Shown here: one piece after another, positions 1-7,581 of the stretch
How the letters are laid out: each line of letters opens with the position of its first letter
Position numbering within the stretch: position 1 is the stretch's first letter
Source of the DNA: Delftia acidovorans NBRC 14950
Lineage (GTDB): Bacteria; Pseudomonadota; Gammaproteobacteria; Burkholderiales; Burkholderiaceae_C
Direction of reading: 5' to 3'
Length of the DNA: 7,581 nt
Assembly: GCF_001598795.1 (NCBI RefSeq)
Contig: NZ_BCZP01000053.1
Coordinates: 1-7,581, forward strand
Translations under genes and position numbers: made by a program
The notes under the pieces: model-generated
Seen by the model: only the letters and a program-made list of their open reading frames with translations
The model's database searches: none
What the model was told of the DNA's origin: nothing

Positions 1-120
1 CCTGCTGGCGTGCTGTGCTGCCAGGGCATAGGCGTCGGCCAGCGCGAAGGCGTGCCGCAGCGCGTAGTGCCAATCGCTGGCCCAGCGGTGGTCGCGGTCA
101 GCGGTGGCAGATGACGACAT
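1..120 (-). CDS. Hypothetical protein, N-terminal 40 codons only (continues past the left edge)
   Basis: Not in the ORF track because it has no stop in the window. ATG is at 120-118, with GGAG 9 nt upstream on the minus strand. Translation is MSSSATADRDHRWASDWHYALRHAFALADAYALAAQHASR with strongly G/C-biased third positions. The frame fits position 1 exactly. Confidence 0.5.
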   Translation of the reverse strand, partial: MSSSATADRDHRWASDWHYALRHAFALADAYALAAQHASR

Positions 121-226
121 AGGGCCGGTCTCCAAATTGCTCCAGCGCCCAGGCGCATGCGTCTTGCGTGCAGGCGCCGACGAATTGCTGCTGCGTGCAG
201 CCGCATTTGATGGTGAAGGTGCGCAT
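98..226 (-). CDS. Small Cys-rich hypothetical protein (42 aa)
   Basis: This is the C-terminal part of track ORF 98..499; the upstream part of that ORF reads as junk. ATG is at 226-224, preceded by GGAG with a 4-nt spacer. Roughly 80 percent of third codon positions are G/C. The sequence MRTFTIKCGCTQQQFVGACTQDACAWALEQFGDRPYVVICHR has 5 Cys. It overlaps the next gene's start by 23 nt. Confidence 0.5.
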   Translation of the reverse strand: MRTFTIKCGCTQQQFVGACTQDACAWALEQFGDRPYVVICHR

Positions 227-239
227 AGGGCTCCAGTGA

Positions 240-480
240 TCAGAGGGTTGGCAGTTCCAGCGGGATCTGCTGGAGCTTGGTTGCGGCAGGCGCATCTGCG
301 GTGCTGGTCTTGCGGGTGCGGCGCTTGGGTGGAGTGGCCGCCTCCGCAGCGCTGGCCAGCTGCTCGCGCGCCCTGGCGAAGGTCTGGGCCACGTTGGTGT
401 GCTCGCTGCGGCGGTAGACAAAGGCCTGATCGGTGATCGGTGATCGGCGTGGAGGGGCGGGTGATGCGGGCGAGTTGCAT
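240..480 (-). pseudogene. Small hypothetical gene disrupted by a +7 frameshift in a heptamer repeat
   Basis: ATG is at 480-478, with GGAG 6 nt upstream, and opens a high-GC3 frame (MQLARITRPSTPITD). After the repeat at 427-447 the high-GC3 signal moves to another frame (QAFVYRRSEHTNVAQTFARAREQLASAAEAATPPKRRTRKTSTADAPAATKLQQIPLELPTL, stop at 242-240). Removing one 7-nt unit joins the two into a 77-aa ORF. That ORF ends 13 nt before the SD and ATG of the next gene. Confidence 0.5.
427..447. repeat. Perfect tandem heptamer (TGATCGG)x3 carrying three GATC sites
   Basis: Read directly: tgatcgg tgatcgg tgatcgg at 427-433, 434-440 and 441-447. Confidence 0.95.
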
Positions 481-498
481 GTGGGTCTCCGGCATGCA

Positions 499-524
499 AA
501 CGGCCCGCTCAGTGGCGGGCCGTT
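499..524 (-). terminator. GC-rich 10-bp hairpin, possible weak intrinsic terminator or attenuator within the leftward operon
   Basis: AACGGCCCGC (499-508) pairs perfectly with GCGGGCCGTT (515-524) around a 6-nt loop. On the minus-strand RNA the stem is followed by only about 3 U. The stop codon of the upstream gene (511-509) sits in the loop. Confidence 0.35.
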
Positions 525-760
525 GGTTGGTCAAAGAAGGTGGTGCCGCACCAGGCGTAGAGCAGCATTCCGCTGTGCCTGGCCTCGTCCAGTGCCGCAT
601 ATCCCGCGTCGCTCAGCAGCGCGCATGCGCTCCAGATCAGCGGGTGGCCGGCGCCCTCGCGCTCCATCACGGCGCCTTCGGCCAGGTCGCGGAAGTAGGT
701 GGCCAGCCAGAACGGCCCGGCAGGAGTTGGCTGCGGTGTCTCGGGATAGGGAGGGCTCAT
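509..760 (-). CDS. Hypothetical protein, paralogue A of a tandem pair (83 aa; alternative start at 775)
   Basis: ATG at 760-758 overlaps the stop of the upstream paralogue in an ATGA arrangement. It shares the motifs PYP, FWLAxYFRDLAE and GMLLYAWxGT with the neighbouring gene. Confidence 0.6.
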   Translation of the reverse strand: MSPPYPETPQPTPAGPFWLATYFRDLAEGAVMEREGAGHPLIWSACALLSDAGYAALDEARHSGMLLYAWCGTTFFDQPTARH

Positions 761-1098
761 GGCTGGTCTGGGCATGCCTCGAAATACCTCGTCCCAGACC
801 AGGCGTAGAGCAGCATCCCGTCATCCCGGGTTCGTGCTGCAGACGCACTCGTCTCATCTGTCTGCTTGGTGCGGGCTCCGTAGAGAGCAAGTTGGGTAAC
901 GTTGTCCGTGCCGGGGCCGCGCTTTGCGTGGCTGCGTTTGCAGAGCTGATCCAAGGCTGCGGTTTCCGCCAGATCCCGGAAATAGGCGGCGAGCCAGAAA
1001 GCTGGGTGATGTGTGCCAGGGGATTTCGGGTAGGGCATGCTCAGATGCTCGGCCTTTGGCTTGCGAGGTGGGCGACGCGGTGGGATGGCATTTGCCAT
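757..1098 (-). CDS. Hypothetical protein, paralogue B of a tandem pair (113 aa; alternative starts at 1038 or 1221)
   Basis: ATG at 1098-1096 is preceded by GGAG with a 7-nt spacer. It contains MPYPKSPGTHHPAFWLAAYFRDLAE and DGMLLYAWSGTRYF, matching paralogue A. The 5' extension to 1221 in the track translates to a low-quality peptide. Confidence 0.55.
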   Translation of the reverse strand: MANAIPPRRPPRKPKAEHLSMPYPKSPGTHHPAFWLAAYFRDLAETAALDQLCKRSHAKRGPGTDNVTQLALYGARTKQTDETSASAARTRDDGMLLYAWSGTRYFEACPDQP

Positions 1099-1267
1099 GG
1101 CAGATCTCCAGTGGTAGACGAAGAAAAGGGCCGGTGCCGCGTGGCGGCTGCGTGGGCGAGATGGCTGGTGGTTGCGAAGAGAGAAACCCAGGCCCGGCGA
1201 AAAAGAAGGCCGCATGTGCATCCAAAGGCGGGTGCTTGAGAGGGCGGAGGCGCGGCGTCAAACCGAA

Positions 1268-1316
1268 GCGCCCTGCAACCCAAGACGCTTGGGTTTGCCC
1301 TGCGTTGCGCAGGGCG
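1268..1316. other. Twin perfect hairpins with an alternative long-range pairing (possible structured RNA or regulatory element)
   Basis: Hairpin 1 is AACCCAAG-acg-CTTGGGTT (1277-1295) and hairpin 2 is GCCCTGC-gttgc-GCAGGGC (1297-1315). A second copy, CGCCCTGC (1269-1276), can pair instead with GCAGGGCG (1309-1316). The two pairings are mutually exclusive. Confidence 0.35.
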
Positions 1317-1406
1317 GGCGCGCTGCTGGCGGTCAGCCCGACAGCCGGCAGTGCTTCAGCCATTACCCGCCATGGCTGCGGTGTGTGGGCGCCTCGAAGA
1401 ACGAGG

Positions 1407-1634
1407 TCATCCCCTGGCGGTCGTTGTCACGCGCTCAGTGAAATCGGCCACGCTGGGCCGCAAGGGGGTTTTCAGGTCTTCGCGCCGCAGCTCCAGTGAT
1501 TGGAGTGGGCGCCTGCCGGCCTGGGCGAAAGCAGGGCTCCGATGGCAGCCCCATGCTTCACAGCGTGGGGTGCTGGTCTTGTTTATTTCGCAGGGCGAGA
1601 GTGGTCGATAGATGGTCTGGGCTGAGCCAGCCAC
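1407..1634 (-). CDS. Doubtful hypothetical ORF (75 aa, GTG start)
   Basis: It is the only sizeable minus-strand ORF between the leftward promoter and paralogue B. Third-position G/C is only moderate, there is no convincing SD, and the peptide is unremarkable. It may be non-coding. Confidence 0.25.
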   Translation of the reverse strand: MAGSAQTIYRPLSPCEINKTSTPRCEAWGCHRSPAFAQAGRRPLQSLELRREDLKTPLRPSVADFTERVTTTARG

Positions 1635-1689
1635 AGTCTTGTGCCACTCTCTTTTTAAGGACCGGCGCGAGCCCGGCCGATGCCGTGGT

Positions 1690-1717
1690 GCCCAACGCGA
1701 TCAAAGATGCGTTGGGC
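1690..1717 (-). other. 9-bp perfect hairpin at the predicted 5' end of the leftward transcript
   Basis: GCCCAACGC (1690-1698) pairs with GCGTTGGGC (1709-1717) around a 10-nt loop. It lies immediately downstream (leftward) of the -10 element at 1725-1720. Confidence 0.4.
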
Positions 1718-1719
1718 GA

Positions 1720-1748
1720 ACTTTACTAAGAACTAAAGTGACGGTCAA
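1720..1748 (-). promoter_or_regulatory. Leftward early promoter (PL-like): TTGACC-N17-TAAAGT
   Basis: The minus strand reads TTGACC (1748-1743), a 17-nt spacer, then TAAAGT (1725-1720). The hexamers and spacing are identical to the rightward promoter at 2948-2976. The promoter sits in an AT-rich tract at the boundary of the immunity cassette. Confidence 0.55.
1721..1738. promoter_or_regulatory. Operator-like 18-mer (OL candidate) CTTTACTAAGAACTAAAG
   Basis: It matches the palindrome at 2958-2975 at 14 of 18 positions, and both are followed by TGA. One arm coincides with the -10 of the leftward promoter. Confidence 0.5.
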
Positions 1749-1761
1749 CAAAAAGCTAAAG

Positions 1762-1777
1762 AAATCTTGAGAGATTT
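1762..1777. promoter_or_regulatory. AT-rich palindrome AAATCT-tgag-AGATTT (second operator, or weak terminator of the repressor-lipoprotein transcript)
   Basis: It has perfect 6-bp arms. On the minus strand it is followed by a T-rich run (ctttagctttttg). It lies between the lipoprotein stop and the leftward promoter. Confidence 0.3.
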
Positions 1778-1813
1778 GTAAACATTGCTTGAGACCGGGG
1801 GGCAGCTGCGAGG

Positions 1814-2239
1814 CTAGCCGGTGCAGGCTTCGTAGATCCCGAGGCTGCGCGCGTCAGCTTGGCTGGAAGATGTTTGGTCTATGAGCGCAGCTTCAGATGT
1901 TGCGGCGAACCGCTTGAAGCCGGTGAACCCGCCGTATGAGTTTTTCCCATTGACCTCGCCACACACCACTGCACCTTCTTGGAAGGCAACTAGGCGAACG
2001 TTTCTGAACTGAGCGCTCTGAGGGTCTTTCAGGGCATTCGATACAGCTGTTTTAGCGGAGGAAATTAAATCTTCTTCCGAATGACCAGAATACAAATAGT
2101 CTCGGTTAAACAAGGCATAGCCGCCGACTATCTTTAAAGATATCTGACGTTCGTGAAGATATGGGTCATATTGAGGGGCTGTCACGCAGCCGGCCATAAG
2201 TGCAGCCATCAAAGATGCCGTTACAGTGATGCCCCTCAT
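1814..2239 (-). CDS. Prophage-encoded lipoprotein (141 aa), co-transcribed with the repressor
   Basis: The N-terminus MRGITVTASLMAALMAGC is a signal peptide with a lipobox Cys. GGAGA lies 4 nt before the ATG. The gap to the repressor stop is only 10 nt. The codon usage is low-GC, like the repressor's. Confidence 0.85.
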   Translation of the reverse strand: MRGITVTASLMAALMAGCVTAPQYDPYLHERQISLKIVGGYALFNRDYLYSGHSEEDLISSAKTAVSNALKDPQSAQFRNVRLVAFQEGAVVCGEVNGKNSYGGFTGFKRFAATSEAALIDQTSSSQADARSLGIYEACTG

Positions 2240-2249
2240 GGTATCTCCG

Positions 2250-2909
2250 TTAGAAAATTAAAGAGTCTTGTCCCACGCTGCCAGCAACGCGCTCAATGCA
2301 CTCAACGTCTGAGCGCATCAACGTCATCGGCTCATACCTGTTATTGATGCTGACTAGTTGCAGCTCATCGTCCCGTATCCAGTTGAGCTGTTTTAGGAGA
2401 CACTTTCCATCAGTCAGTTTGACAACGACGTCCATGCCTGGCTGCGATTCTATGCTTGGGGTCACAATTACATATTCGCCCGCCCTATACCGTGGGTGCA
2501 TTGAATCGCCCTTGATTCTTAATGCGAAGGCGCGGGGGTCTTGTGTCCAGAAATCAACCCAGCCATCAATTCCGTTGTCTTGAATGAGGTAGCCATCATC
2601 GCCCCCTCGGACGGCGCCTGTTACGGGGACACGACGAGGCTTTTTTTCGTTGGCCGCTGGGATGGGGCTGTTGTCATCTTCTGGTTTAGTCGCAAAACCA
2701 TCCTCGAAGTAGCGTTCGCCCAGTCGCAGCTCGTTTGCAATGTTGCGTGCAGACCTCTCGCCAAAGCTCTTGGCTGGGTCAAGGAGTTGAGAGATGCGAC
2801 CCTCGCTGACTCCTGCGGCGCGCGAAAACTCCACCTGGCTCCCTCTGTAGGGGGGTGAGTCGATCAGTGCCCGTAGGCGCTGTTTCCGATGCTGCGTCAG
2901 TTCGTCCAT
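2250..2909 (-). CDS. CI/LexA-type phage repressor (N-terminal XRE-type HTH, C-terminal S24 peptidase)
   Basis: The HTH region is QVEFSRAAGVSEGRISQLL. The S24 catalytic signatures are GDSMHP (Ser) and VVVKL (Lys). It lies divergent to a Cro-like gene across a 70-bp operator region. Confidence 0.95.
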   Translation of the reverse strand: MDELTQHRKQRLRALIDSPPYRGSQVEFSRAAGVSEGRISQLLDPAKSFGERSARNIANELRLGERYFEDGFATKPEDDNSPIPAANEKKPRRVPVTGAVRGGDDGYLIQDNGIDGWVDFWTQDPRAFALRIKGDSMHPRYRAGEYVIVTPSIESQPGMDVVVKLTDGKCLLKQLNWIRDDELQLVSINNRYEPMTLMRSDVECIERVAGSVGQDSLIF

Positions 2910-2945
2910 GTTTAGGAAATGGTAAACAATCCGAGTTTAGGAAAT
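2910..2945. promoter_or_regulatory. Two direct 11-bp repeats GTTTAGGAAAT in the repressor/cro intergenic region (operator or maintenance-promoter region)
   Basis: The copies lie at 2910-2920 and 2935-2945, 25 bp apart. GTAAACA (2922-2928) recurs at 1778-1784 near the leftward promoter. A TAAACT -10-like hexamer for the repressor strand lies at 2939-2934. Confidence 0.4.
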
Positions 2946-2947
2946 TG

Positions 2948-2976
2948 TTGACCCTATCTTTAGAATGATCTAAAGT
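2948..2976 (+). promoter_or_regulatory. Rightward early promoter (PR-like): TTGACC-N17-TAAAGT
   Basis: TTGACC is at 2948-2953 and TAAAGT at 2971-2976, with a 17-nt spacer. The predicted start site is about 2983, which is the A of the cro-like ATG. Confidence 0.6.
2958..2975. promoter_or_regulatory. Operator palindrome (OR candidate) CTTTAGA-atga-TCTAAAG
   Basis: It has perfect 7-bp inverted arms and overlaps the spacer and -10 of the rightward promoter. It is related to the 18-mer at 1721-1738. Confidence 0.55.
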
Positions 2977-2982
2977 GAGGTG

Positions 2983-3210
2983 ATGGAACTCAAGACTTGG
3001 CTTACTGCAGAGCGTGGCCGTTCGACGGCCTTGTCGGCTCATCTGTCTGTCACCTTGGGGCGCATCACCCAGATGGCTGATGAGGGCGTTCCTGCGAAGT
3101 ACATGCTTGCTGTTCGTGACTTCTCCTGTGGGGCTGTGACGCTGGAGGAGATGTTGGCGCCCAAAGATGTGCGTCGTGCGACGAGCAGCGGCGGGGTGGC
3201 GCATGTTTGA
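2983..3210 (+). CDS. Cro/YdaS-like small HTH regulator (75 aa; alternative GTG start at 2980)
   Basis: MELKTWLTAERGRSTALSAHLSVTLGRITQMADEGVPAKYMLAVRDFSCGAVTLEEML resembles the YdaS/Cro-type single-domain HTH pattern. It is divergent from the repressor. Confidence 0.85.
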   Translation: MELKTWLTAERGRSTALSAHLSVTLGRITQMADEGVPAKYMLAVRDFSCGAVTLEEMLAPKDVRRATSSGGVAHV

Positions 3211-3234
3211 CGCCCTTGCTGGATGGTCTTCTGT

Positions 3235-3483
3235 TCATCTTGTCACTCTTGCAGAGATGCTTCGCAGCTGTGCAATCACTTCCGGTGCCGCGCTCCCTGT
3301 CTCCTGCATGCGCTGGCAGCACAGTTCGCTCCAGCGGGCCAACGCGCCCGCGCTGAAACCGGCTCGGCCTTCGCCTTCCAGGACTTCGATCATCTGGCCC
3401 AGGAACAGCTCCAGGGCCTGCGCCCATTGGGGGCTGCCGATGTTGTCTGCTGTGGGCGTTGCGGGTGTTGTGCTGTGGGTCAT
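3235..3483 (-). CDS. Hypothetical small acidic protein (82 aa), opposite in orientation to the surrounding operon
   Basis: The peptide MTHSTTPATPTADNIGSPQWAQALELFLGQMIEVLEGEGRAGFSAGALARWSELCCQRMQETGSAAPEVIAQLRSISARVTR looks helical and protein-like. Its third-position G/C is higher than that of the codon-aligned plus frame, which reads as Cys-rich junk. The SD is weak and no promoter was found. Confidence 0.4.
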   Translation of the reverse strand: MTHSTTPATPTADNIGSPQWAQALELFLGQMIEVLEGEGRAGFSAGALARWSELCCQRMQETGSAAPEVIAQLRSISARVTR

Positions 3484-3510
3484 GTCGATGGCTCGCAAGG
3501 GGTTGTGCTG

Positions 3511-4041
3511 ATGAGTGCAACTTTCTCAGTTGGCATCGCCCCTGGCTATGTCGAATCCGATCCCCAAGCCGACATTGCCGCCGGCATGGATGTGCTGGAC
3601 GCAGCCTACCTGACGGCGCAGACCAGCCAGGGCGGTGTCAAGGCACTGGCCGTGCGCATGGGCATCAACGCCGGCACGCTGCAGCACAAGCTCAACACCA
3701 ACAACGAAACGCACCACCTGACCCTGCGCGAGGCTGTGCAGCTGCAGGTGGTCACGGGCAATGCGGCTGTGCTGCATGCCATGGCCAGCCAATTGGGGTA
3801 CGAGTGCCGGCGCGCCTTGCCAGACCAGGCAGAGGGTGACCCGGTGGAGGCCTTCATGCATTTCCAGTCCGCCGTGGCCGAGGTCACGCGCGCTGCAGCT
3901 GATGCGCACCGCCAGCCGTCGCGCAATGCGGTGCGGCGGCTTGACCGCCAGGTGCAGGAACTAACCGTCATGGCGCAGTACCTGGCCCGCTCGGCACAGC
4001 AGCGCCTGGCCGACACCCCTGGAGGTGGCAATGCGTATTGA
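3511..4041 (+). CDS. Phage CII-type regulatory protein (CP76 family-like), 176 aa
   Basis: The core GGVKALAVRMGINAGTLQHKLNTNNETHHLTLREAVQLQVVTGNAAVLHAMASQLG matches the remembered CP76/CII signature. ATG is at 3511, with AAGGGG 9 nt upstream. The track ORF from 3223 is an artefactual 5' extension. Confidence 0.8.
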   Translation: MSATFSVGIAPGYVESDPQADIAAGMDVLDAAYLTAQTSQGGVKALAVRMGINAGTLQHKLNTNNETHHLTLREAVQLQVVTGNAAVLHAMASQLGYECRRALPDQAEGDPVEAFMHFQSAVAEVTRAAADAHRQPSRNAVRRLDRQVQELTVMAQYLARSAQQRLADTPGGGNAY

Positions 4042-4879
4042 TATCAAGCCTGAGGGCGGTGATCGATACAAGCGTGCCCTGGCCGGCCTGGATGGTGGGC
4101 AGATTGCTCTGGCCACGGCCGAGGCCATCAACATGGGTGCGGGCCGTGTCAAGAATTCCATGCGCTCTGAAATGCAAAGCGTTTTCGACCGGCCCACGGG
4201 CTATGTGCTGCAGTCGGTGCAGGTGGTCAAGAAGGCCACGGCCGGCGACCTCAATGCGCTGGTGGCGCCTACCTACATGGGCGGCAAGGGCGTGGACCCG
4301 CAGCAGATCCTGGCCGCTCAGGAGGATGGCGGCCGGCGCCGTGACAAGCGCAGCGAGAAGGCCCTGCGCACGGCAGGCATCTTGCCCATTGGCTACCAGA
4401 CCGCGATCCCCGCCACTCCCTACCCGGGCAGCGATGACGGGCGCGGGAACCTCAAGGGCTCGACCCTGGTACAGCTGATTGCCTACTTCCAGGCCTTCGG
4501 CGAGCAGGGCTACCGGGCCAACATGACCAAGGGGCGCATGCAGGCCCTGCACCAGCGCGGCGGCAAAGGCGCGCGCTTCATGGGGCCGGTGAAGGGCATT
4601 CGCTACATCGTGGCCTATGGCCGTCTGCGCGGCGGTGCGCGGGCAACCGCGCGTGGCGAGTACGACAAGCGGGCATCCAATCTGCCGCCCGGCATTTGGG
4701 CGGTGACCGGCACAGGCGGCGCAGACGTGCGGCCGGTGCTGATGTTCGTGCGCGGCGGCAACTACAAGCCCCGCATCAGCCTGGACGGGGTGCGCAAGCG
4801 CTCGGGCATCGATGAGTTGGTTCCCCGCTGGGTCCGTGGCCGCGTCTATGACGCATTCAGGAAAGCCAGTCAGGGCTGA
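4031..4879 (+). CDS. Hypothetical protein (282 aa), unknown function
   Basis: It has strong G/C third-position bias. GGAGG (4021-4025) lies 5 nt before ATG 4031. It overlaps the CII-like stop by 11 nt. The N-terminus loosely recalls gpZ/HK97-gp10-type tail-completion proteins, from memory only. Confidence 0.85.
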   Translation: MRIDIKPEGGDRYKRALAGLDGGQIALATAEAINMGAGRVKNSMRSEMQSVFDRPTGYVLQSVQVVKKATAGDLNALVAPTYMGGKGVDPQQILAAQEDGGRRRDKRSEKALRTAGILPIGYQTAIPATPYPGSDDGRGNLKGSTLVQLIAYFQAFGEQGYRANMTKGRMQALHQRGGKGARFMGPVKGIRYIVAYGRLRGGARATARGEYDKRASNLPPGIWAVTGTGGADVRPVLMFVRGGNYKPRISLDGVRKRSGIDELVPRWVRGRVYDAFRKASQG

Positions 4880-4908
4880 CGGCCCGGCTGATATCAGGAG
4901 AGATAGAC

Positions 4909-5250
4909 ATGCAACACATCACCCAACAGGTGACCTCGCATGACACCAAGGCGGATTCTTTCTCCGCCATTGGTAATGCCACGCGGGTGCGCCTCAATGA
5001 ACGGCTGTACAGCAGCCTGGCCGAAGCCCACCGCCGGGGGCAGCCCGCCCTGAGCCGGCGCGAGCTGCGGGACTTCCATAACGAGTGCACGGGCGAATGG
5101 CTGGAGATCTCCAGCGTGGCCAGCACGGTCAATGCGCTGGTGGCGGCCAAGCGAGTGGAAGAGGTGGCGGCGCGGGCCTGCTCCCTGCCGCCGCATCGCC
5201 TGGTCAAGCCTGTGCGCTGCCGCCTGCAGCAGGCGACGTTGACGGACTGA
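4909..5250 (+). CDS. Hypothetical protein (113 aa), possible winged-helix DNA-binding protein
   Basis: AGGAGA lies 8 nt upstream of the ATG and coding bias is good. The segment LSRRELRDFHNECTGEWLEISSVASTVNALVAAKRVEEV looks wHTH-like, which is inference only. Confidence 0.8.
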   Translation: MQHITQQVTSHDTKADSFSAIGNATRVRLNERLYSSLAEAHRRGQPALSRRELRDFHNECTGEWLEISSVASTVNALVAAKRVEEVAARACSLPPHRLVKPVRCRLQQATLTD

Positions 5251-5274
5251 ATTGATATCGAAGGTTGAGCAGGC

Positions 5275-6345
5275 ATGAATCACTACCCCCACCACATCGG
5301 CGACTTCAACACCGCGACACGGCACTTGTCACGGCTGGAGCGTGCCATCTACCGTGACATGCGTGACATGTACTGTGACACCGAGGCGGCGTTGGACGGC
5401 TCCAGCTTCGATCTGCTGGCGCGGCGCCTGCTGTGCCGGTCGCCGGAAGAGATCGATGCCCTGCAGTTCGTGCTGGCTGAGTTCTTTACGCAGCTGCCCG
5501 ATGGCCGATATCAGAACGACGAATGCGAGCAGATCGTGGCCCAGTTCCGCCAGCAGCAGGAGGGGCGCAACGAGGTCAAGAGCAATGAGCATCTGCGGCA
5601 GAAGCGCAGCAGGGCTAGGCGTAGTGCTATCTTTTCTGCGCTTCGTACTCTGGGTGTCGTGCCTGCTGCCAAGGCGAAAGCTGCAGATCTGATGGCTCTG
5701 TGCCGTCAGCATGGGATCGTCGTGACAGATACCAGTGTCACGCTCAATGGCACGGACTGGCTTGGTGGTGATACGGGCAATGTCACGCCACGTCACGGTG
5801 ATGTCACGGGTGGTGTCACGCCTCGTCACGGGGATGACACGGGTAACCAGAACCAGAACCAAAACCAATACATACCCCCCAACCCCCCTGCAGGGGGGGC
5901 GAGTGGTGGACTGGCTATCGCCACGGCGCTTGCAGGCAGCTTCCCGGAGCATCGCCGCACCCGGTTGGTGGACGTGGCCGACGCCGTGGCCGATGCCATT
6001 GCCCGTGGCGACGTGACGGCCGAGGAACTGCTGGCTGCCGCTGAGCAGCAGCGTGGACTGCTGGCGGCGAAGGATGGCAAGGCCTGTCCCAGCCTGCTGC
6101 GCTGGGTGCGTGAGCAGCGTTGGAAGGACGTGGTGATGCTGGCCTCTGCGGCAGGCGAGGGGCAGCAGCCCGACAACTGGGCAGACACGCGCAGCGGCGT
6201 CGAGGGCATGGCGGCCAGCCTGGGCATGCCGGGCTACGACGACTGGTGCGATGCGCGCGCAGGGCAGGGCCTGCGGCGAGCGTTCGCGGACTACGAGGCG
6301 GCAGTGCATGCGCTGTTGGCCGAGCGTCAGGGGGTGTCGGCATGA
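5275..6345 (+). CDS. DUF1376 (YdaU-type) phage replication-associated protein, 356 aa
   Basis: The N-terminus MNHYPHHIGDFNTATRHLSRLERAIYRDMRDMYCDTE is the characteristic DUF1376 opening. A low-complexity linker and a C-terminal domain follow. Confidence 0.9.
   Translation: MNHYPHHIGDFNTATRHLSRLERAIYRDMRDMYCDTEAALDGSSFDLLARRLLCRSPEEIDALQFVLAEFFTQLPDGRYQNDECEQIVAQFRQQQEGRNEVKSNEHLRQKRSRARRSAIFSALRTLGVVPAAKAKAADLMALCRQHGIVVTDTSVTLNGTDWLGGDTGNVTPRHGDVTGGVTPRHGDDTGNQNQNQNQYIPPNPPAGGASGGLAIATALAGSFPEHRRTRLVDVADAVADAIARGDVTAEELLAAAEQQRGLLAAKDGKACPSLLRWVREQRWKDVVMLASAAGEGQQPDNWADTRSGVEGMAASLGMPGYDDWCDARAGQGLRRAFADYEAAVHALLAERQGVSA
5353..5370. repeat. Tandem 9-mer CGTGACATG x2, with a third GTGACA at 5375-5380
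   Basis: Read directly. It encodes RDM-RDM. The hexamer is the reverse complement of the motif arrayed at 5782-5841. Confidence 0.9.
5721..5742. repeat. Inverted repeat CGTGACA-N8-TGTCACG
   Basis: It has perfect 7-bp arms at 5721-5727 and 5736-5742. Confidence 0.9.
5782..5847. repeat. Two tandem 33-bp units carrying six phased GTCACG-type hexamers (iteron-like array)
   Basis: Hexamers start at 5782, 5792, 5803, 5815, 5825 and 5836 (the last is GACACG). The 21-mer cores GTCACGCCACGTCACGGTGAT and GTCACGCCTCGTCACGGGGAT are 19/21 identical. Confidence 0.85.
5845..5868. repeat. A-rich hexamer tract (AACCAG)2(AACCAA)2
   Basis: Read directly. It encodes the NQNQNQNQ run and is followed by TACATA. 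It is locally the least G/C-rich part of the gene. Confidence 0.9.
5883..5898. repeat. Perfect 16-bp palindrome CCCCCCTGCAGGGGGG
   Basis: Read directly. It is preceded by another C6 run at 5875-5880. Confidence 0.9.
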
Positions 6346-6494
6346 CGGTGCGCGCCCTCATCGGCGCGGCGGCGCCCCTCTCGATGTGCTCAAAAAATAG
6401 GCAGGATCGCGGGTCCTTTTTGGCCCCCTTGGAAGCGGGTAATTCGAGCCGCGCTCTCGGACTGTTGCGCAACCTTCCTAAGGGGGTTAAGTGA
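6342..6494 (+). CDS. Possible 50-aa ORF bridging the replication and terminase genes
   Basis: ATG 6342 overlaps the DUF1376 stop (ATGA), with AGGGGG 7 nt upstream. Its TGA (6492-6494) overlaps the GTG start of the small terminase (GTGA). Third-position G/C is fairly high. The peptide is MTVRALIGAAAPLSMCSKNRQDRGSFLAPLEAGNSSRALGLLRNLPKGVK. The call conflicts with the expectation of a cos site in this interval. Confidence 0.35.
   Translation: MTVRALIGAAAPLSMCSKNRQDRGSFLAPLEAGNSSRALGLLRNLPKGVK
6403..6421 (+). terminator. Weak hairpin plus T-run (possible leaky terminator)
   Basis: AGGATC-gcg-GGTCCT (one G-U pair) is followed by TTTT. An A6 run lies just upstream at 6392-6397. Confidence 0.25.
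6424..6486. promoter_or_regulatory. Long-range inverted repeat that includes the terminase SD
   Basis: CCCCCTTGGAAG (6424-6435) is complementary to CTTCC(T)AAGGGGG (6474-6486) with one bulged T. The right arm contains the AAGGGGG SD, 4 nt before GTG 6491. Confidence 0.5.
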
Positions 6495-7033
6495 AGGTCC
6501 TGCCTTACTTTGATGCTCCTATTTCGCAAGCAGAATTTGCGGCTTTGGTTGGTGTCAGCGAGGCTCGCGTGAGCCAGCTGGTGGGCGAAGGCGTGATCGT
6601 CCGGGGCGATTCGGGCCACGAATGGCTGCTGAGCTACTGCGAGCGCCTACGCGACCAGGCGGCGGGCCGCGCATCGGCCGGTTTGGGTGGTCTGGACCTG
6701 GTCCAGGAACGTGCGGCGCTGGCGCGCTCGCAGCGCGAGGCCCAGGACCTGAAAAACGCCGTCGCCCGTGGCGAATTCGCGCCCATCGGCGCCCTGGCCG
6801 ATGTCCTGGGGCTCGCCAGCTCAGCCGTGGTGGACCGCATGGACCAGATCGAGGGCCAGCTGCGCAAGGCCTGCCCGGATCTACCCGAAGATGCCCGCGT
6901 CACGGTGCTGCGCGTGCTCGCCGATGCGCGAAACGAGTGGATTCGCGTCACATCCAAGCTGATCGGCGAGCGCGTGGCGGCCATGGCCGAGGCGCCCGAC
7001 GAGGATGAGCTGGACGAGGAGGCCGCATTTTGA
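6491..7033 (+). CDS. Terminase small subunit, lambda Nu1-like (180 aa, GTG start)
   Basis: It has an N-terminal HTH (ISQAEFAALVGVSEARVSQLVGEGV). The segment RSQREAQDLKNAVARGEFAPIGALADVLGLASSAVVDRMDQIEGQL parallels lambda Nu1 RAQADAQELKNARDSAEVVETAF and the residues that follow it. It sits directly upstream of a gpA-like gene. Confidence 0.9.
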   Translation: MKVLPYFDAPISQAEFAALVGVSEARVSQLVGEGVIVRGDSGHEWLLSYCERLRDQAAGRASAGLGGLDLVQERAALARSQREAQDLKNAVARGEFAPIGALADVLGLASSAVVDRMDQIEGQLRKACPDLPEDARVTVLRVLADARNEWIRVTSKLIGERVAAMAEAPDEDELDEEAAF

Positions 7034-7581
7034 GCGCACCCCTGTCGAGAGAGGCCATTTCCGCCATCCAGGCCGCCGTGCAGCTGGGCCTGTCCAGCCT
7101 GCGGGCCGACGCACCGCAAACACTGTCCGAATGGGCCGCCGACCACTTCCTGCTGGCCGGCGAATCCAGCCACCAGAAGGGCGGTTGGGTGGCCTGGCCG
7201 TTCCAGGTGGGCATTCTGGACTTCATGAGCGACGACCGGATCGAGGAACTGGCCGTCAAGAAGTCCAAGCGCGTCGGCTACTCGAAAATGATCACGGCCT
7301 TCGTCTGCTACAACATCGCGCACCGCCGACGCAAGCAGGCGCTGTGGCAGCCCACGGACGACGACCGTGACAGCTTCGTCAAGACCGAGATCGAGCCCCT
7401 GCTGGACAGCAAGGACGGCGTGCCCTCTGTGATCGCGGCCCGCAAGCAGGGCAGCCGGGTCGAGGAGACCATCAAGTACAAGCCTTTCCGTGACAGCGTG
7501 CTGCACCTGCTGGGCGGCAAGGCGGCGCGGGCCTACCGCCGTATCACGGTGGCCGTGGCCATCCTGGACGAATGGACTGCG
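7030..7581 (+). CDS. Terminase large subunit, lambda gpA-like, N-terminal 184 codons (continues past the right edge)
   Basis: It is not in the ORF track because it is open-ended. TTG 7030 overlaps the Nu1-like stop, and GAGGAGG lies 7 nt upstream. The translation LSEWAADHFLLAGESSHQKGGWVAWPFQVGILDFMSDDRIEELAVKKSKRVGYSKM...LGGKAARAYRR closely tracks the remembered gpA N-terminus (ESSYVEGRWEAYPFQRAIMDAM...VKSARVGYSKM...GGKAAKNYR). Confidence 0.9.
   Translation, partial: MSAPLSREAISAIQAAVQLGLSSLRADAPQTLSEWAADHFLLAGESSHQKGGWVAWPFQVGILDFMSDDRIEELAVKKSKRVGYSKMITAFVCYNIAHRRRKQALWQPTDDDRDSFVKTEIEPLLDSKDGVPSVIAARKQGSRVEETIKYKPFRDSVLHLLGGKAARAYRRITVAVAILDEWTA

Follow-up and report, generated by a model that had tools for sequence, protein, structure and literature searches.

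Introduction

The replication origin of phage lambda consists of an iteron array and an AT-rich region, which together occupy the linker-coding part of the initiator gene O. Here we describe an element of similar arrangement in a stretch of 7,581 nucleotides from Delftia acidovorans NBRC 14950 (contig NZ_BCZP01000053.1, positions 1 to 7,581), referred to as the window throughout. The element lies inside a gene for a DUF1376 protein, in the early region of a temperate phage that is integrated in a Delftia-like genome and whose closest proteins are those of Delftia acidovorans and D. lacustris. An earlier note on this DNA had proposed a prophage origin at this place, bound either by the DUF1376 protein or by the 113-amino-acid product of the gene upstream. 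Comparison with related loci suggests that positions 5721-5910, together with auxiliary sites at 5316-5379, are probably the replication origin of the prophage, placed inside the linker-coding part of the gene of its own initiator. We base this reading on the architecture of the element, the co-variation of its repeats with the encoded protein, the gene context and the precedent of the Rac prophage.

Rac, whose ydaU gene also encodes a DUF1376 protein, is reported to have an active origin, oriJ, which has been a source of plasmids (PMC3945230; reference list of PMC11014345). Among the papers found that mention DUF1376 none is functional, in keeping with the earlier view that a DNA target for such proteins may be new.

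Results

The centre of the element is an array of six repeats in one orientation (Table 1). Five of the six GTCACG-type hexamers listed in the earlier note are exact and start at 5782, 5792, 5803, 5815 and 5825 of the plus strand; the sixth, at 5836, reads GACACG. Their spacings of 10, 11, 12, 10 and 11 bp are those of a helical turn. The two tandem 33-bp units described before were recovered by Tandem Repeats Finder (period 33 bp, 1.9-2.3 copies, 80-90% matches). Counted on both strands of the window, GTCACG occurs 20 times compared with 3.9 ± 1.9 times in shuffled sequences (largest value 9), an approximately five-fold excess, and 11 of the 20 copies lie in the DUF1376 gene. The statement that the hexamer is otherwise present only as isolated copies had to be abandoned, since a second cluster was found at 5316-5379 in the 5′ part of the gene, where it belongs to the coding part of the DUF1376 domain and encodes RHLSRLERAIYRDMRDMYCD. 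Minus-strand copies at 3115, 4340, 6012, 7366 and 7489 also extend the earlier list.

The inverted pair upstream of the array is perfect, as had been described. Downstream of the array follows the tract that had been called the locally most A-rich one. With 57% A on the top strand it shares the highest A content of any 30-mer in the window, and every other 30-mer of the gene is more stable; the top strand of its AACC-repeat part (5845-5868) is free of T. The right border, composed of C and G homopolymers, includes the previously reported 16-bp palindrome CCCCCCTGCAGGGGGG (5883-5898), which is perfect. DnaA boxes were not found in the window, and no known RNA family, tRNA, promoter or terminator was found at the element.

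A scan of viral contigs yielded 31 loci with full-length homologues of 38-98% protein identity, to which contig look-ups added two; the full-length set including the window comprises 32 loci. All 31 full-length homologue loci and the window keep, in this order, the repeat array, the AACC repeats, a short A-rich spacer and ACCCCCCAACCCCCC-N1-5-GGGGGG(G)CGAG; the remaining linker is unalignable and carries large insertions and deletions. Every GTCACG-class locus has an array of three to nine copies, mostly 10-12 bp apart, and arrays of more distant relatives are non-alignable. From 87 sites in 15 loci we derived the consensus TGTCACG(G/C). Among 12 distinct close relatives, 41 of 48 hexamer columns are invariant versus 21 of 34 spacer columns; within the inverted pair, one position of the left copy varies and none of the right. 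A repeat copy 45 bp before the array occurs in L010, L018 and L019 too (locus designations of the homologue set), and auxiliary copies at gene positions 53, 78 and 87 are found in most GTCACG-class loci.

The AACC repeats are more widespread. With a period of 6, 7 or 8 nt they occur at gene positions 370-670 in 44 of the 47 DUF1376 loci examined and encode NQNQ, PEPE or aperiodic peptides; (AACCAG)n, for instance, is read as NQNQ in the window and as PEPEP in L083, L085 and L033. Periods of 7 and 8 nt mean that no peptide repeat stands behind them. As the repeat is T-free on the top strand, a stop codon is impossible in any forward frame. This property might allow an unwinding element to live inside a gene with slippage-prone homopolymers at its side, since a shift of frame would meet no stop codon in the tract. 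The C6AAC6 block is translated as PPNPP in 23 loci and as TPQPP in 9, and small indels flanking it restore the frame. Codon usage in the core is extreme: the proline codon CCG is used in 0 of 120 cases (122 of 390 elsewhere) and the glycine codon GGG in 61 of 63 (97%; elsewhere 136 of 868, 16%). Variants of the C6/G7 block are present in distant loci and in Rac ydaU, and many lineages have a GC-rich palindrome of differing sequence 3′ of the AACC repeats. Homopolymer length varies naturally, with C7 in L009 and a G6 run in L015 (gene length 1067 nt) that probably causes a frameshift. In a heat-evolved E. coli strain, ydaU was reported to be frameshifted at residue 178 of 285 (PMC10044804), in or close to the part encoded by its C7 runs.

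These data bear on the simplest alternative, a plain low-complexity linker with a recent in-frame 33-bp duplication and a DNA pattern that merely follows from the peptide. The stretch does encode the sequence VTPRHGDVTGG VTPRHGDDTGN QNQNQNQ, in agreement with the earlier translation and predicted to be disordered, and it has the 33-bp period. However, the relatives translate this DNA in more than one frame, and GTCACG itself is read in two frames in the window (GTC ACG as VT; C GTC ACG G as RHG). The 7- and 8-nt periods of the AACC repeats are incompatible with peptide repeats, the codon usage of the core is left unaccounted for, and motif copies persist where spacers and peptide change. An array absent from close relatives would have pointed to a recent duplication, as the earlier note remarked; in the alignment of homologues every relative has one, also where the linker peptide differs. 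Conservation at the DNA level across frames thus rules out a mere linker or recent duplication, an explanation to which we assign almost no probability. Comparison of the loci makes it close to certain that the stretch functions as DNA and forms a pair with the DUF1376 protein.

Which protein the repeats belong to can be read from natural exchanges. In L025, L026, L031 and L068, all of the same subfamily, CGTTGAACG-type repeats replace TGTCACG. A comparison of L018 (repeat ATGTCACGG) with L031 (repeat CGTTGAACG) delimits the exchanged segment: DNA similarity is 83% up to gene position 46, homology is absent from positions 47-528, which comprise the N-terminal half and the repeats, and similarity is 73% from (AACCAG)n onward. 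At the protein level, the upstream 110-amino-acid proteins are 95% identical, the terminase small subunits 77% (55 of the first 60 residues) and the C-terminal domains of the DUF1376 proteins 73%, versus 47% for their N-terminal domains and unrelated middle parts. From this pattern it follows that the repeat type and the N-terminal half of the DUF1376 protein are passed on as one unit, joined by nothing else.

In support of this, a contingency table of 81 distinct family members revealed a strict pairing. Proteins with an RSRARRSAIF-type middle segment are accompanied by GTCACG arrays in 27 of 28 cases and proteins with the AG[KR]AS motif by GTTSAAC arrays in 35 of 44, with no cross-overs between protein class and array type among the 81. 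Where the array changes its motif, so do the auxiliary copies of the 5′ coding region, which are TTGTCACGG and CGTGAC in the GTCACG class and CATTTAACGTTCGTTGAACGGGCGTTGTACC at the same place in the GTTGAAC class; the L042 group has two GTTGAAC copies at gene positions 183 and 194. The embedded CATTTAACGTTCGTTGAACGGGCGTTGTACC forces HLTFVER in place of HLSRLER. We considered this peptide change as a specificity determinant and rejected it; because L033 combines HLSRLER with GTTGAAC repeats, the change is better explained by the DNA site itself. Comparison shows the N-terminal half of the DUF1376 protein to be the specificity partner of the TGTCACG(G/C) repeats.

As to the protein of 113 amino acids, the L018 and L031 versions are nearly identical although the repeats differ, and we dropped it as a repeat reader. 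Its gene is absent from the position directly upstream of the DUF1376 gene in L022, L025 and L068, and scans of family libraries including Pfam, PHROG and NCBIfam gave no match for it. The origin partner is thus best read as the DUF1376 protein: of the two candidates in the earlier note, the comparative tests favour the first, and the second is disfavoured by the L018/L031 pair.

The exact resumption of homology at (AACCAG)n might suggest another role for the AACC/C6-G7 core, namely that of a homology anchor for the exchange of N- and C-terminal modules with no direct part in initiation, the more so since the core is common to genes with unrelated C-terminal domains. Yet selection for future recombination would be weak, and an anchor explains neither the strict codon choice and the co-varying adjacent repeats nor the AT-rich equivalent without AACC repeats in Rac. 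We regard an anchor as improbable; module exchange at the core is more likely a consequence than a cause.

The terminase small subunit failed as a repeat reader in the same comparison, since the repeats differ while this protein is conserved. Its gene nevertheless starts at 6491, 600 bp downstream of the element, the large subunit of relatives is GpA-like, and in lambda cosB has repeated Nu1 sites and cosN partial symmetry. One could imagine, then, a cos or pac packaging site with the Nu1-like small subunit bound to the repeats and the palindrome as nicking site. This, too, is improbable, and slightly more so than an anchor. The repeat type changes while the small subunits of L018 and L031 remain closely similar, and the element co-occurs with two unrelated small-subunit families or with none nearby: it is accompanied by another terminase family in L032, lies at least 1 kb from the terminase gene in L018, L031 and L025, and has no terminase nearby in L042, L067, Rac and L086. 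Examined as a cos site, the repeat element did not qualify as one. Moreover, a separate and strongly conserved non-coding block occupies the place just ahead of the terminase gene where a cos site would be expected. This block (6380-6490), reading GGGTCC...GCGGGTAATTCGAGCCGC...CTAAGGGGGTTAAGTG, travels with the terminase across loci of differing repeats. Its 16-mer (Table 1) is found exactly in 23 loci, including loci with GTTGAAC-type repeats and other DUF1376 classes, and we consider the block a better candidate for a cos site or for terminase control than the repeat element.

The proposed initiator matches Pfam PF07120 (DUF1376) at residues 2-88 (E = 5e-25; 88 bits, cut-off 30.1). PF07120 is its only Pfam family, and membership in Phage_rep_O was not found. 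Its PHROG matches are 'primosomal protein' families, and close relatives bear the NCBI label 'YdaU family protein'. In the AlphaFold model (predicted local distance difference test, pLDDT, 83.7) the N-terminal domain is winged-helix-like; a long helix leads from it to a small domain, and a disordered linker separates this from a helical C-terminal domain. Confidence is below 50 at residues 167-198, and the means of 10-residue blocks remain below 50 through residue 210. This low-confidence linker lies between two confident domains, and the putative origin element encodes residues 149-212. The viral proteins nearest to the model in structure are DUF1376, Lin1244/Lin1753-like, 'Replication protein' and RepA-like proteins, with replication initiators among them. 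A Foldseek search of the Protein Data Bank (PDB) with the full model gave only weak winged-helix matches (E above 0.5), no sequence relatives of the protein were found in the PDB, and Pfam gave nothing for the C-terminal domain.

Residues ~100-160 of the protein resemble the DNA-binding region BES1_N (PF05687), with E ~1e-3 and 20 bits (cut-off 25) for the segment in the window. Matches were obtained in 16 of 27 homologues (best E 1.5e-5), and one protein, P0054, carries PF05687 as a precomputed annotation. PDB chains of BZR1 match the segment at E 0.024, and hhalign against a manually entered BZR1 sequence gave a probability of 84% with 33% identity over 55 columns. In the model the segment runs from a long basic helix through a loop and a short helix to a beta-hairpin. 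BZR1 binds CGTG(C/T)G and CACGTG, the G of CACG being recognised by its residue Arg41 (PMC12668046). In the alignment this residue falls on the invariant Arg of RSRARR, and Cys73 on ALC; the repeats in the window have the core CACG, and CGTGAC(A) on the opposite strand. The segment belongs to the swapped module; only the subfamily that has GTCACG repeats possesses it, and proteins of the GTTGAAC class lack it. It is the likely reader of the CACG core, a reading that we treat as a lead.

The same arrangement recurs outside this group of phages. In ydaU of the E. coli K-12 Rac prophage the linker-coding part begins this plan with repeats of the TGTTCAA type, continues it with an A-rich tract and completes it with C7-TAAAT-C7-G5; two more copies, TGTTCAA/TGTTGAA, lie in the 5′ coding part, and the gene is followed by the DnaC-like ydaV. 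We consider the ydaU element a candidate, at the sequence level, for oriJ. Element-bearing DUF1376 genes are followed by a lambda P-like loader in L042, by a DnaB-like helicase/primase in L067 and, in a circular 41.6-kb Burkholderia element (L086), by a DnaC-like ATPase and then NinB and NinG. Loader and helicase genes 3′ of the DUF1376 gene correspond to the O-P position of lambdoid phages. L086, a Burkholderia gladioli 'plasmid', resembles a circular lambdoid phage genome; its YdaU gene has a third repeat type, GGAAACCCAG, in about five copies, 7-nt AACC repeats and two GC palindromes.

Further genes of the window are listed in Table 1. The open reading frame of the CII-like gene probably includes too much at its 5′ end, the true start being internal, near 3590. 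The gene at 4025-4879 stands among early genes though its PHROG family is called 'minor tail protein'. It lies upstream of the DUF1376 gene in L022, L025 and L068 and downstream of it in L018, L028 and L031, and thus moves as a cassette. A convincing gene is absent from positions 1-1800, where long open reading frames overlap in all frames. This part contains a perfect three-fold TGATCGG repeat at 427-447, a weak sub-threshold match to the Xanthomonas small RNA sX2 at 492-567 (minus strand) and an AT-rich spot near 1750; it may be the prophage end or host DNA.

Other searches added little. A scan of genome contigs with the single DUF1376 protein returned one distant locus. A phage collection gave a sole match of 113 bp at the nucleotide level, with protein matches confined to the N-terminal domain. 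Profile A3 found one family member only in an index of 5.8 billion proteins, and NCBIfam gave zero matches.

Table 1. Features discussed in the text; positions are those of the window unless another sequence is named.
Feature	Position	Strand	Remarks
S24 repressor	2250-2909	-	
Cro/YdaS-like protein	2980-3210	+	
CII (CP76)	3223-4041 (open reading frame)	+	domain in residues 124-260
phrog_1924 protein	4025-4879	+	PHROG 1924 ('minor tail protein') and tail-completion family 27
113-amino-acid protein	4909-5250	+	no family match
DUF1376/YdaU protein, 356 amino acids	5275-6345	+	proposed replication initiator
Auxiliary cluster, plus-strand copies	5316-5379	+	GACACG 5316, GTCACG 5328
Auxiliary cluster, opposite-strand copies	5316-5379	-	CGTGCC 5341, CGTGAC 5353, CGTGAC 5362, TGTGAC 5374
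BZR1-like segment, residues ~100-160 (KSNEHLRQKRSRARRSAIFSALRTLGVVPAAKAKAADLMALCRQHGIVVTD...)	5572-5754	+	Pfam BES1_N
Inverted pair CGTGACA (5721-5727)-N8-TGTCACG (5736-5742)	5721-5742		perfect; 39 bp upstream of the array
Iteron array, six TGTCACG-type repeats, one orientation	5781-5841	+	10-12 bp apart
A-rich tract (AACCAR)4 + TACATA	5845-5874	+	proposed DNA-unwinding element
C6 (5875-5880), AA, C6 (5883-5888), TGCA, G7 (5893-5899), then CGAGTGGTGGA	5875-5910		conserved right border of the putative origin core
Conserved non-coding block upstream of the terminase small-subunit gene	6380-6490	+	16-mer GCGGGTAATTCGAGCC at 6435-6450; not part of the putative origin
Nu1-like terminase small subunit	6491-7033	+	PHROG 57, weak Phage_Nu1
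oriJ primer amplicon, E. coli ydaV	L082 5241-5395		
YdaU gene of L086	NZ_CP104216.1 36388-37164		Burkholderia gladioli circular 'plasmid'

Discussion

The element combines the features of a lambda-type origin: an array of direct repeats, a meltable tract with a palindrome, a location in the linker-coding part of a gene, and repeats that co-vary with the N-terminal half of the encoded protein. We consider it likely, at a level short of confidence, that it serves as the origin of the prophage. Several points weigh against this view. The A-rich tract is just 63% A+T, and intergenic sites at ~1750 and ~2945 are less stable. Folded as a single strand, the palindrome is no better than shuffled sequence, and across the family stable hairpins follow the AACC repeats more often than expected, though not universally, ranking in the top 10% of their own gene in 13 of 44 loci. 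Given the comparison with shuffles and the modest size of this enrichment, we dropped selection for a hairpin. Most BES1_N matches stay below the curated Pfam cut-off, and Foldseek with the BZR1-like middle segment gave no significant match. A phage-encoded loader or helicase is absent from the window, and in particular from the interval between the initiator and terminase genes. Finally, the 'primers framing oriJ' (PMC3945230) amplify part of ydaV, namely its Walker-A region, and this is ~600 bp further downstream than the ydaU element; given this location they do not map the origin, and we rejected them as a map.

A role other than initiation is conceivable for binding sites of the DUF1376 protein: autoregulation by roadblock or looping, or some other DNA transaction, with the origin elsewhere. 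Two clusters ~400 bp apart inside a gene would suit looping or autoregulation, and iteron plasmids use initiator sites for both functions. Operators, however, normally lie at promoters, and no sigma-70-like promoter was found in 4800-6600. Autoregulation would also leave unexplained why AACC repeats and a GC palindrome accompany the array throughout the family, and why the parts follow one another as in ori-lambda. We judge such a role in place of initiation to be unlikely; a dual function, origin and autoregulation, may apply.

If the element is an origin, initiation might proceed as follows. Several copies of the DUF1376 protein would bind the six repeats, which, spaced by a helical turn, lie along the same side of the double helix, most likely through the basic BZR1-like segment recognising the CACG core. 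The nucleoprotein complex would strain the adjacent, least stable tract, (AACCAR)4-TACATA, and bring about its opening. The C6/G7 block could limit the opened region or form a hairpin for helicase loading or priming, and the C-terminal domain (residues 210-351) might recruit the host replicative helicase.

More broadly, and here we are doubtful, DUF1376/YdaU proteins may be a large family of initiators whose origin lies in their own linker DNA, composed of lineage-specific iterons, a T-free AACC element open in all frames and a GC hairpin, the iterons of the Delftia/Comamonas lineage being read by a homologue of BES1/BZR1 resembling a basic helix-loop-helix protein. If true, the BES1/BZR1 fold, known as plant-specific, would gain a phage or bacterial counterpart or source. 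Independently of this wider view, the origin reading gives DUF1376, a domain common in prophages of Proteobacteria, a testable function as an origin-binding initiator with defined DNA targets, TGTCACGS in the Delftia class and CGTTGAAC in the majority class. The locus is also a clear case in which a DNA element is the main constraint on coding sequence, with the same bases read in three frames among relatives. The origin reading would further supply a rule by which origins and replicon specificity, in the sense of incompatibility or immunity to replication takeover, could be predicted for hundreds of uncultured phages, and a candidate sequence is offered for the E. coli Rac oriJ.

Comparison with described systems places the element close to, and yet apart from, each of them. 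With the iteron plasmid origins and their winged-helix initiators (RepA, pi, TrfA) it shares short direct repeats for its own proposed initiator, an adjacent unwinding element and extra initiator sites near or in the initiator gene. In contrast to these, it lies within coding sequence and lacks DnaA boxes. The protein bears a weak fold resemblance to winged-helix proteins and to RepA-like viral proteins, but no significant sequence or fold match to Rep_3/RepA. Similarity to BES1/BZR1 (PF05687; PDB 5ZD4) is one of sequence profiles over ~55 residues; whereas that family is described as plant-specific, the segment here is inserted in a putative phage initiator, and BZR1 Glu37 is replaced by Gln or Lys.

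Rac ydaU-ydaV is alike in the type of protein and in the order of linker repeats, A-rich tract and C/G runs. It differs in repeat sequence and C-terminal domain, its unwinding tract is truly AT-rich and devoid of AACC repeats, and a DnaC-like gene follows. As in ori-lambda and its lambdoid relatives, direct repeats on one face of the helix are followed by an A/T-biased, putative unwinding tract and then a palindrome, the whole element lies inside the linker-coding middle of the proposed initiator gene, and the N-terminal half is swapped along with the repeats, the C-terminal half being interchangeable. Unlike lambda, the Delftia phage has a DUF1376 protein instead of a Phage_rep_O protein, and a P-like loader gene does not adjoin it. 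Its repeats are non-palindromic and 7-8 bp long (lambda, ~19 bp), with extra copies in the 5′ coding region; its unwinding tract is a T-free AACC repeat of ~37% G+C in a gene of 62-72% G+C, and its palindrome is built from C6/G7 homopolymers.

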